Assembly: GCA_039819385.1 (NCBI GenBank)
Contig: JBCBSC010000012.1
Coordinates: 14,371 to 78,370, forward strand
Length of the DNA stretch: 64,000 bases
From: Pseudomonadota bacterium
GTDB taxonomy: Bacteria; Pseudomonadota; Gammaproteobacteria; Steroidobacterales; Woeseiaceae
Reading direction: 5' to 3'
In this document: piece by piece, positions 62,584 through 63,223 of the stretch
How positions within the stretch are numbered: position 1 is the stretch's first letter
Layout of the letters: each line of letters begins with the position of its first letter
The notes under the pieces: model-generated
Seen by the model: the letters and a program-made list of their open reading frames with translations, nothing else
What the model was told of the DNA's origin: nothing
Database searches by the model: none
Made by a program: the position numbers and the translations under genes

Positions 62584-62809
62584 ACACTTTCGTCTTGCTT
62601 GCCGGACTTCGCGCAATCGTGCCGTGCACAATTCTGCTGCAGCCTTGTCGCTACGCGACTCCGCCACAGGCCCTCACTTTGTCGTCGCCGCAAGGGCCTC
62701 GACGACGCGGGATTGTAACAAACAATCGGTCAAAGCGGTTGGTGCATTACGTCTTGGATAGGCCAGTAAAGCGGGTATCCGCGAAGCAGGTATTTGCCTA
62801 CTTTCAGGT

Positions 62810-63175
62810 ATGCTCAATTGCTTGATTTGTGAACGTGTTCTTTCGGGCAGGCAACGCCGCTATTGTTCCCGAAAATGTAAAAACGCGAGTACAAACGCGA
62901 AAAATCAACGATATGCTTGCCAGCAGGCTCGTGGTCGCGTTAGAAAACTCAGGCTAATCGAAATGCTTGGCTCGCAGTGTTTCGTCTGCGGGTACAGCAG
63001 AAACTACGCTGCGCTTGAATTTCACCACGAAAAACCATTTTCAAAGGCTTTTGCGCTGGATCTCCGATCACTATCCAATCGACGTTGGGAAGTGATTCTT
63101 CACGAGGTTCGGAAATGCCGGCTATCGTGCTCGAATTGCCATGCAGAGCTGCACAATCCAGGTTGCAAAATGTGA
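62810..63175 (+). CDS. Free-standing HNH endonuclease
   Basis: CxxC (CFVCG)...EFHHEKP...N...CSNCHAELHN is the classic HNH/zinc-ribbon pattern. There is an extra N-terminal CxxC...CxxxC. The gene is visibly AT-richer than its flanks. Confidence 0.85.
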   Translation: MLNCLICERVLSGRQRRYCSRKCKNASTNAKNQRYACQQARGRVRKLRLIEMLGSQCFVCGYSRNYAALEFHHEKPFSKAFALDLRSLSNRRWEVILHEVRKCRLSCSNCHAELHNPGCKM

Positions 63176-63200
63176 AAAAAGCCGGGCAAAGCCCGGCTTC
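63175..63200 (-). terminator. Rho-independent terminator of rpoD, shared convergently with the HNH gene
   Basis: Minus strand reads GCCGGGC-TTT-GCCCGGC followed by TTTTTT. Confidence 0.7.
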
Positions 63201-63223
63201 CTTAATCCACAAATCACCGTCAG

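Follow-up and report, generated by a model that had tools for sequence, protein, structure and literature searches.

An HNH endonuclease family associated with group I intron-split tRNA-Ile(CAU) genes, a candidate for collaborative homing on bacterial chromosomes

Described systems and how the present locus compares

Collaborative homing takes its definition from cyanophage S-PM2 (Zeng, Bonocora and Shub 2009; summary in PMC6083498), in which the free-standing gene for the endonuclease F-CphI lies beside psbA, a gene that carries a group I intron without an open-reading frame (ORF). The same arrangement is present in the window, a stretch of 64,000 nucleotides from a gammaproteobacterium of the Woeseiaceae (assembly GCA_039819385.1, contig JBCBSC010000012.1), in which a gene for a 121-aa protein with HNH/zinc-ribbon motifs is divergent from a tRNA-Ile(CAU) gene that is interrupted by an ORF-less group I intron. 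At 78 of 79 assessable cellular loci, the protein family to which this gene belongs adjoins or sits inside a split tRNA-Ile(CAU) gene, and the HNH enzyme is likely to be the mobility partner of the intron rather than a chance neighbour. In the published summary of the S-PM2 system, the intron is proposed to block self-cleavage and the enzyme to give mobility, a logic that we infer here too. As summarised there, F-CphI has an Endo VII-type motif and a protein-coding target in a phage, whereas the present family consists of 121-aa HNH/zinc-ribbon proteins at a chromosomal tRNA gene and is widespread in cells; cleavage by F-CphI is experimental, whereas the role of the present family is read from comparison of sequences. 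Unlike F-CphI, the present family also occurs inside the intron in other lineages. An earlier note on this DNA had traced collaborative homing to the T-even phages; the arrangement that it recognised stands, and the definition belongs to F-CphI/psbA of S-PM2, a T4-type cyanophage, according to the same summary (PMC6083498).

In Synechocystis PCC 6803, the group I intron of tRNA-fMet contains I-Ssp6803I (Bonocora and Shub 2001, as cited by PMC3984707), the sole tRNA-intron endonuclease named in the citing article, a review of bacterial group I introns from 2014. That enzyme resides in a cyanobacterial tRNA-fMet gene, whereas the present family is of the HNH type, is associated with tRNA-Ile(CAU), is antisense when nested and lies outside the intron in Gammaproteobacteria. 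We take I-Ssp6803I to be a PD-(D/E)XK enzyme that is intron-encoded, presumably in the sense orientation. A tRNA-Ile(CAU) group I intron of class IC3 was reportedly described in Azoarcus sp. BH72 by Reinhold-Hurek and Shub in 1992. The Azoarcus-type tRNA-Ile intron is among the best-studied ribozymes, and the Azoarcus intron is roughly 205 nt long; to our knowledge it has no endonuclease partner, and none appeared in the literature searched. Like it, the window intron has tRNA-Ile(CAU) as its host, is inserted 3′ of the anticodon CAU and is, by prediction, a small ORF-less IC3 ribozyme with a GUG guide pairing with CAU; it differs in its length of 234 nt and in an extra insertion after P7. Structures of the Azoarcus intron are among those cited in PMC3984707. 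Neither an HNH enzyme nor any other mobility partner of tRNA-Ile introns was described in the literature searched.

Free-standing homing genes between conserved genes, tRNA clusters included, are known from phage T4, where MobE, an HNH enzyme, is involved in trans-homing of the I-TevIII intron (PMC2790892) and SegB is a free-standing endonuclease in a tRNA cluster (PMC2988022, PMC13096335). The present family resembles both in its placement, and its phage relatives lie in tRNA arrays as SegB does in T4. Both T4 enzymes promote transfer of their own genes along with flanking DNA. SegB belongs to the GIY-YIG class, and MobE is larger, acts at nrdA/nrdB and shares with the present family the HNH superfamily, the level at which the two were compared. 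Antisense homing-endonuclease genes have been reported in the nuclear ribosomal DNA (rDNA) group I introns of myxomycetes and fungi (PMC3679873, PMC9223047), and at the 12 nested loci of the present family the ORF likewise runs opposite to the intron and host gene. The rDNA genes encode eukaryotic His-Cys box enzymes in rRNA genes; full-text literature searches returned antisense homing genes for eukaryotic rDNA introns only, and none in bacteria or in tRNA genes. As far as could be found, the principle is known, and the HNH family, the tRNA-Ile target, the three arrangements and the shift of intron site described below are undescribed.

Linkage of the HNH family to split tRNA genes

A scan with one genome per species gave 331 genomes with a relative of the HNH protein, of which the best 80 were fetched and analysed together with the window, as 81 loci, by BLAST, ARAGORN with introns allowed and tblastn. 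The loci were distributed as follows:

HNH gene free-standing and divergent from split tRNA-Ile(CAU): 62 loci, and also L041 and L044, which are of the same type but truncated at contig ends; Gammaproteobacteria
HNH ORF nested in the intron in antisense orientation: 12 loci; Acidobacteria, Capsulimonadaceae, Rhodothermales and Anaerolineales (four phyla, Chloroflexi and Armatimonadota included)
HNH gene directly downstream of the tRNA, on the same strand: L038 and L052; Lysobacterales and Steroidobacteraceae
Too truncated for judgement: 2 loci
No tRNA nearby: 1 locus, L021

The divergent loci come from Woeseiaceae, Ectothiorhodospiraceae, Thiohalomonadaceae, Granulosicoccaceae, Steroidobacteraceae, Lysobacterales, Sulfuricaulis, Thermomonas and others, so the HNH gene, which had been taken for a lineage-specific occupant of its slot, holds that slot in many gammaproteobacterial families. 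Their HNH start and tRNA 5′ end are 63-379 nt apart (median 100), and the tRNA has an ORF-less intron of 230-289 nt. The end of rpoD lies no more than 200 nt from the HNH stop codon in 41/62 divergent loci and is elsewhere absent or kilobases away, indicating that the family is linked to the tRNA and not to rpoD. The idea of a free-standing homing endonuclease working with the intron, put forward in the earlier note from the window alone, is strongly reinforced by this linkage, which holds whatever the other neighbours are. No locus examined keeps the HNH gene at this site in a relative that lacks the intron, and a single locus (L021) has it in an unrelated context.

At the two same-strand loci (L038 124-840, L052 722-1444), the HNH gene starts 35-60 nt past the 3′ end of the intron-containing tRNA and may be co-transcribed with it. 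Two contigs from metagenome-assembled genomes labelled ‘Halobacteria archaeon’ (L001, L017) are probably mis-binned, as they carry a bacterial rpoD 93% identical to that of the window and a gammaproteobacterial tRNA/HNH locus.

An independent sample of the tRNA gene was obtained by scanning metagenome contigs with the 3′ exon alone, so that tRNAs were picked regardless of intron or HNH gene. The 127 matches comprised 112 uninterrupted CAU tRNAs, 2 tRNA-Lys-like genes, about 12 with intron-type junctions and 1 odd match. Neither a protein profile nor a DNA profile detected an HNH relative or remnant in 120 contigs, and the count of HNH genes at the 112 intron-less CAU tRNA loci was zero. Seven intron-bearing tRNA genes, all confirmed by Rfam, were found without HNH; five of their introns are of the window's type, with at least 780 nt of upstream flank. 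One of these HNH-less loci, L167, reads rpoD, terminator and tRNA with intron, and both intron-less alleles and HNH-less intron alleles occur downstream of rpoD. The introns without HNH share 82-88% identity with the HNH-linked ones, which falls in the range seen among HNH-linked introns themselves, and thus belong to the same family. An intron was present in 78/78 HNH-selected tRNA loci compared to about 15/127 exon-selected ones (Fisher p ~1e-41, for two different sampling frames). Absence of both elements is the commonest state, the intron without HNH is common and HNH without the intron is almost never seen, which is the pattern expected if the enzyme is tolerable only where its target is interrupted.

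Several loci showed features of their own. In L245 (3035-4700), a gene for a P4-type tyrosine integrase lies directly downstream of an HNH-less intron-containing tRNA-Ile(CAU), and there the split tRNA appears to double as a site for island integration. A second group I intron type, ending in CAAACCGG or CAAACCAG, was seen at position 36/37 of tRNA-Ile(CAU) in L150 (320-614), L177 (167-693, with an intron of about 450 nt) and L231 (~3950-4087), none of which has an HNH gene of the family; L150, whose contig also holds a Polynucleobacter-1 RNA, is probably betaproteobacterial. The 5.2-kb contig L207 contains three copies of the 3′-exon pattern (56-92, 2530-2566 and 4977-5013), each with a different upstream junction, one being of the nested type (GGUAAG/CAU) and one of the type ending in CAAACCGG; ARAGORN reported no tRNA there.

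The split tRNA, the HNH protein and their nested and phage relatives

The locus in the window has the following layout:

62810..63175, + strand: HNH endonuclease gene, 121 aa (ORF with CFVCG, EFHHEKP and CSNCHAELHN)
62273..62583, - strand: whole split tRNA-Ile(CAU) gene, CCA end included (ARAGORN with introns allowed, sequence)
62547..62583, - strand: 5′ exon, 37 nt, ending in the anticodon CAU (sequence, alignment of 64 pre-tRNAs)
62313..62546, - strand: ORF-less group I intron, 234 nt (RF00028, conserved core motifs)
62273..62312, - strand: 3′ exon, 40 nt, CCA included (sequence, ARAGORN)
62584..62809, no strand: divergent intergenic spacer, 226 nt, between the tRNA 5′ end and the HNH ATG
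62658..62686, - strand: degenerate copy of the tRNA 5′ end and upstream bases (gacgacaaagtgaGGGCCTGTggcggagt against the real gacgaaagtgtGGGCCTGTagctcagt)
62712..62720, - strand: extended -10-like element TGTTACAAT (direct reading, close relatives)
63179..63199, no strand: 9-bp G+C-rich hairpin between the convergent HNH gene and rpoD (direct folding)
63224..64000, - strand: 3′ part of rpoD, running past the window end (81% DNA identity to E. coli rpoD)

The observations in the first description of this locus were confirmed by these data. The ORF is intact and carries the HNH/zinc-ribbon motifs reported for it, it is divergent from the tRNA at the 226 nt claimed (62583 to 62810), the tRNA is an intron-split ileX, and E. 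coli has the order rpoD, mug, tRNA-Ile, as had been stated. The gene reads GGGCCTGTAGCTCAGTTGGTTAGAGCAGGGGACTCAT, then the 234-nt intron, then AATCCC...GGGCCCACCA, and ARAGORN placed the split tRNA at 62273-62583 (-) with the same intron length. RF00028 matches 62321-62558 (-) over the full model (positions 1-253) with 69 bits against a gathering score of 50. The intron is inserted between tRNA positions 36 and 37, its last base being G, followed by AAUCC, and the 5′ splice-site U of the exon CAU pairs with the GUG guide of the intron; the alignment of 64 pre-tRNAs has the conserved core motifs GGTGCAGAGACTAC and GAGATAGTCC. The spliced tRNA is identical at 64/76 positions (84%) to the E. coli tRNA-Ile (ileX) gene downstream of rpoD-mug, and the CAU anticodon, the body sequence and the synteny downstream of rpoD together make it an ileX type. 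No credible ORF was found in the intron, in agreement with the earlier claim, the ORFs that reach into it being mechanical ones that cross structured RNA. These features predict an Azoarcus-type, IC3-class group I intron capable of self-splicing.

The HNH protein reads MLNCLICERVLSGRQRRYCSRKCKN...CFVCGY...LEFHHEKP...LRSLSNRRW...KCRLSCSNCHAELHNPGCKM, with an N-terminal CxxC...CxxxC zinc ribbon (C4, C7, C19, C23) followed by an HNH core composed of CxxC (C57, C60), HH 72-73, N90 and CxxCH..H (C107, C110, H111, H115). An alignment of 31 homologues has 36 invariant columns, among them those of the N-terminal ribbon, both structural-zinc CxxC pairs (C57/C60 and C107/C110), HH72-73, N90 and H111; together with H115, the HH72-73, N90 and H111 residues are invariant or almost so. 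PHROG HNH families match the protein at E = 4e-19, 1e-14 and 4e-13. Pfam, including the HNH family PF01844 to which the earlier note had pointed, gave no match to the window protein, and neither did NCBIfam, a sequence-profile search of the PDB or the PADLOC defence models; PF01844 does match 12/31 family members, with a best E of 6.6e-6. As Pfam and NCBIfam do not match, the HNH identity rests on PHROG, on PF01844 in those 12 members, on the invariant residues and on the predicted fold. The AlphaFold (AF2) model is confident, with a predicted local distance difference test (pLDDT) score of 91.7, and has a predicted strand-strand-helix at residues 69-73, 103-107 and 108-115. Compared as a model, it has 39 structure matches in BFVD at E <= 1e-3, nearly all of them named HNH endonuclease, and the best are predicted structures of phage HNH endonucleases (E = 1e-10, template-modelling (TM) score 0.72). 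Foldseek matches in the PDB were weak (E >= 0.08) and were mostly Cas9 HNH domains, with Gme HNH, T4 Endo VII and Cap5 in addition. The window ORF encodes an HNH (beta-beta-alpha-metal) nuclease with intact active-site residues.

Among 5.8 billion proteins searched, 126 were homologous, with lengths of about 120 aa and identities of 50-66%; nearly all are unnamed or carry the name ‘hypothetical protein’. A profile search of 1.84 billion representatives gave 311 clusters at E <= 1e-30, rising to 8385 at E <= 1e-10. An exact look-up of the HNH protein in public assemblies gave no record. The best-scoring representatives (P0139-P0148) are 250-360 aa long with two to four tandem 120-aa modules, and could be real multi-domain proteins or fused or mis-called ORFs.

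In all 12 nested loci (L029, L046, L053, L056, L058, L062, L063, L070, L071, L075, L076 and L078, about 3690-4410 in each), the 5′ exon ends in GGACU or CGGCU and the 3′ exon starts with CAUAAUCC after G, which places these introns at 33/34, 3 nt upstream of the gammaproteobacterial 36/37 site. Some 25 nt separate the stop of the nested ORF from the 5′ splice site, and the frame of L075 extends into sequence antisense to the 5′ exon. The nested ORF is flanked by the 5′ splice site on one side and by the guide GGGUUGC on the other. The GGUU of this guide base-pairs with GACU of the exon, and a U-G pair forms at the splice site; L071 and L076 have the exon CGGCU together with GGGCUGC (GGCUG pairing), a compensatory change. 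With its guide downstream, the antisense ORF is thus placed in the P1 loop. A pairing of the nested 5′ exon with the sequence right after the splice site was also considered and was dropped, as it is the GGGUUGC past the ORF that covaries with the exon. Beyond the start of the nested ORF, a conserved AAAUGGGUUGC aligns with AAAUGGUGCG at the 5′ end of the window intron. Just two nested introns reached the Rfam gathering threshold, with the P3-P9 core motifs plain in the sequences; exon junctions, core motifs and covariation of guide and exon served to establish the nested and phage introns, most of which scored below that threshold. On this comparison, the guide regions and cores of the nested 33/34 introns and the ORF-less 36/37 introns are clearly homologous, which makes the difference a 3-nt shift of site within one intron family.

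Two free-standing loci, L012 and L034 (4358-4385 in each), have a 28-nt copy of the 5′ exon, with 1 and 4 mismatches, fused to the 3′ end of the HNH gene in the manner of the nested loci; about 90 nt before the start of that gene comes a full tRNA whose intron lacks an ORF. This copy ties the free-standing form to the nested form. In L059 (1598-1920) and L073 (3605-3908), 138-nt tandem repeats of the tRNA 5′ end and upstream DNA lie between the tRNA and the HNH gene and are of the same kind as the degenerate copy at 62658-62686 of the window, which was read from the sequence and was not reported by the repeat finder. Such exon copies are consistent with a rearrangement in which the ORF either left the intron or entered it, the direction being a matter of interpretation.

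Relatives of the protein are also found in phages. IMG/VR yielded 66 loci, 49 of which have tRNA genes within 3 kb, and 13/19 of the closest full-length phage relatives abut tRNA(CAU), usually with the HNH stop facing the 3′ end of an uninterrupted tRNA. In L082 (2700-3420), a 38-kb IMG/VR phage contig, a complete intron with an antisense HNH ORF lies inside tRNA(CAU), beside tRNA-Arg(UCU); the element has an internal direct duplication of about 57 nt, and its intron was missed at the Rfam gathering threshold. More distant phage relatives (L102-L139) lie beside tRNA-Asn(GUU), tRNA-Arg(UCU) or tRNA-Ile(UAU) genes, which suggests that HNH subfamilies are specialised on different tRNA genes. In a rough neighbour-joining tree, the phage sequences are basal and most diverse, the nested forms lie near phage L081 and L082, and the gammaproteobacterial forms are derived. 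The family is probably specialised on tRNA(CAU) genes and of phage origin.

The spacer of the window is longer than the median of 100 nt in the 62 divergent loci of relatives, and it must carry the promoters of both the HNH gene and the tRNA. TGTTACAAT (62712-62720) is a tentative candidate for the tRNA promoter, proposed from its counterpart TGnTAGAAT, which in close relatives precedes the tRNA by about 14 nt. On the other side of the HNH gene, the hairpin at 63179-63199 was missed by a consensus terminator scan and revealed by direct folding (9-bp stem; z = -4.2 for the + and -4.8 for the - strand). On the rpoD strand UUUUUU comes next, as in a canonical intrinsic terminator, and on the HNH strand CCUUAAUCC, with no U tail. 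A terminator shared by the two genes had been claimed; the hairpin between the convergent genes is there and is canonical for rpoD, and with a U tail on the rpoD strand alone the shared terminator is just half canonical.

Proposed function, alternatives and meaning

The homologous region aligns to the window protein unbroken and in a single frame in 81/81 cellular loci, and in 103 full-length cellular and phage copies the frame runs from start to stop codon. The ratio of nonsynonymous to synonymous substitution rates (dN/dS) is 0.04-0.27 for free-standing and nested forms alike (Nei-Gojobori, pairs with at least 72% identity), and the HNH gene is under purifying selection. The protein evolves fast, the window copy being 58-66% identical where the rpoD fragment is 99% identical. 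Guanine-plus-cytosine (GC) content is 0.47-0.49 over the HNH ORF of the window, 10-12 points lower than the 0.57-0.63 of the flanks, so that the gene is AT-richer than its surroundings, as the earlier note had seen. Its reading of this as a sign of acquisition, if taken as recent and lineage-specific, was not upheld: HNH GC is below flank GC in 80/81 loci (mean -9 points) and correlates with it (r = 0.85), so the low GC tracks host GC and the AT bias is a family trait, and HNH divergence correlates with that of rpoD. Over 41 gammaproteobacterial loci, the correlation of HNH with rpoD distances is r = 0.43 (Mantel, p = 0.0005), and that of HNH with intron distances is weaker (Mantel r = 0.26, p = 0.02).

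We put at roughly 60% the probability that the gene encodes a functional HNH homing endonuclease targeting uninterrupted tRNA-Ile(CAU), with the intron as immunity, that is, collaborative homing. The enzyme would recognise, and cut or nick, the uninterrupted tRNA-Ile(CAU) gene around the anticodon-loop region, and the intron, by splitting the target site, would make the host's own essential tRNA gene immune. Where an allele with HNH gene and intron meets an intron-less allele after DNA transfer, the break would be repaired from the intron-bearing copy, and this repair would co-convert the intron and the adjacent HNH gene. We infer cleavage, its target site, intron-conferred immunity and gene conversion from the comparison of loci described above.

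A number of observations weigh against this proposal. L021 (2615-6067), the sole homologue without a tRNA nearby, has its HNH gene in an unrelated context, among a Ku-like gene, a gene for a 341-aa protein with an HNH-like motif of its own and a ribosome-hibernation-factor-like ORF. The phage relatives beside uninterrupted tRNA(CAU) mean that the intron is not the sole way of tolerating the enzyme, and the target geometry of the free-standing (36/37) and nested (33/34) sets may differ. A consensus promoter scan recognised no promoter for the HNH ORF. A search of sequencing runs found the locus in marine-metagenome DNA contigs only and in no RNA data, the exon ‘joints’ in those runs being other tRNAs or diverged relatives and no intron-less alleles. 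Finally, the gammaproteobacterial HNH gene looks largely vertical, GC-ameliorated and long resident, and a purely selfish homing gene would be expected to decay after fixation. This long vertical persistence under purifying selection is the main tension, and it leaves room for a role at the level of the host, such as the exclusion of DNA with an uninterrupted tRNA-Ile(CAU) gene.

Such a role is the substance of a domesticated nuclease, which the host would keep to destroy incoming DNA with uninterrupted tRNA-Ile(CAU), the intron providing self-immunity and homing being no longer the main reason for its retention. The strong purifying selection, the long co-inheritance with the chromosome, the tRNA(CAU) genes that phages often carry in arrays and the near-obligate dependence on the intron are all consistent with this. 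We nevertheless regard it as unlikely, since there is no PADLOC defence-model match, no defence genes were seen as neighbours, the seven intron-bearing relatives without HNH indicate that the gene is dispensable, and the abundance of the family in phages fits a selfish origin better. There is also a slim chance that intron and nuclease form a self/non-self device, with the intron as the ‘antitoxin’ or ‘methylase equivalent’ of a restriction-like system directed against any incoming DNA with an uninterrupted tRNA-Ile(CAU) gene, such as phage tRNA arrays and foreign chromosomal fragments. Little credence is given to an inactive relic, the displaced and drifting leftover of a once intron-encoded endonuclease that no longer cuts: L012 and L034, which show the free-standing form to be derived from or tied to the nested form, the existence of HNH-less intron alleles and the unrecognised promoter would suit it, but single-frame alignment in 81 loci, start-to-stop frames in 103 full-length copies, catalytic and zinc ligands invariant in 31 sequences and dN/dS values of 0.04-0.27 are not those of a decaying gene.

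The tight linkage to the split tRNA, the common divergent control region and an N-terminal zinc ribbon that could bind nucleic acid might also be accounted for by a maturase-like splicing helper or a regulator of the tRNA gene, a protein that binds the intron RNA or the tRNA promoter and cuts no DNA. This is very improbable given that the same intron family occurs without the protein in seven loci, that Azoarcus-type IC3 introns are established to self-splice efficiently protein-free, that all catalytic HNH residues are kept, which pure binding would not need, and that phage relatives adjoin intron-less tRNAs. Last, the low GC relative to the flanks and the frequency of HNH genes in mobile DNA would be in keeping with an ordinary free-standing HNH gene that came to lie between rpoD and the tRNA by chance, for instance as the remnant of a prophage or an island. 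This explanation is already contradicted by the comparative data, with the family at or in the split tRNA in 78/79 assessable loci from at least five phyla and in several wider contexts, and 0 HNH genes among 112 intron-less tRNA loci.

Under the homing proposal, the family provides a candidate endonuclease for the Azoarcus-type tRNA-Ile intron. Its members form a natural series of the stages proposed for the origin of mobile group I introns, with the HNH gene free-standing next to an intron-less tRNA (in phages), free-standing next to an ORF-less intron, or incorporated in the intron itself. The antisense homing gene that appears to be encoded in a P1 loop is the first bacterial case found. 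The locus would be a chromosomal example of collaborative homing, and its 121-aa enzyme, with a predictable target, would be useful if it is site-specific.

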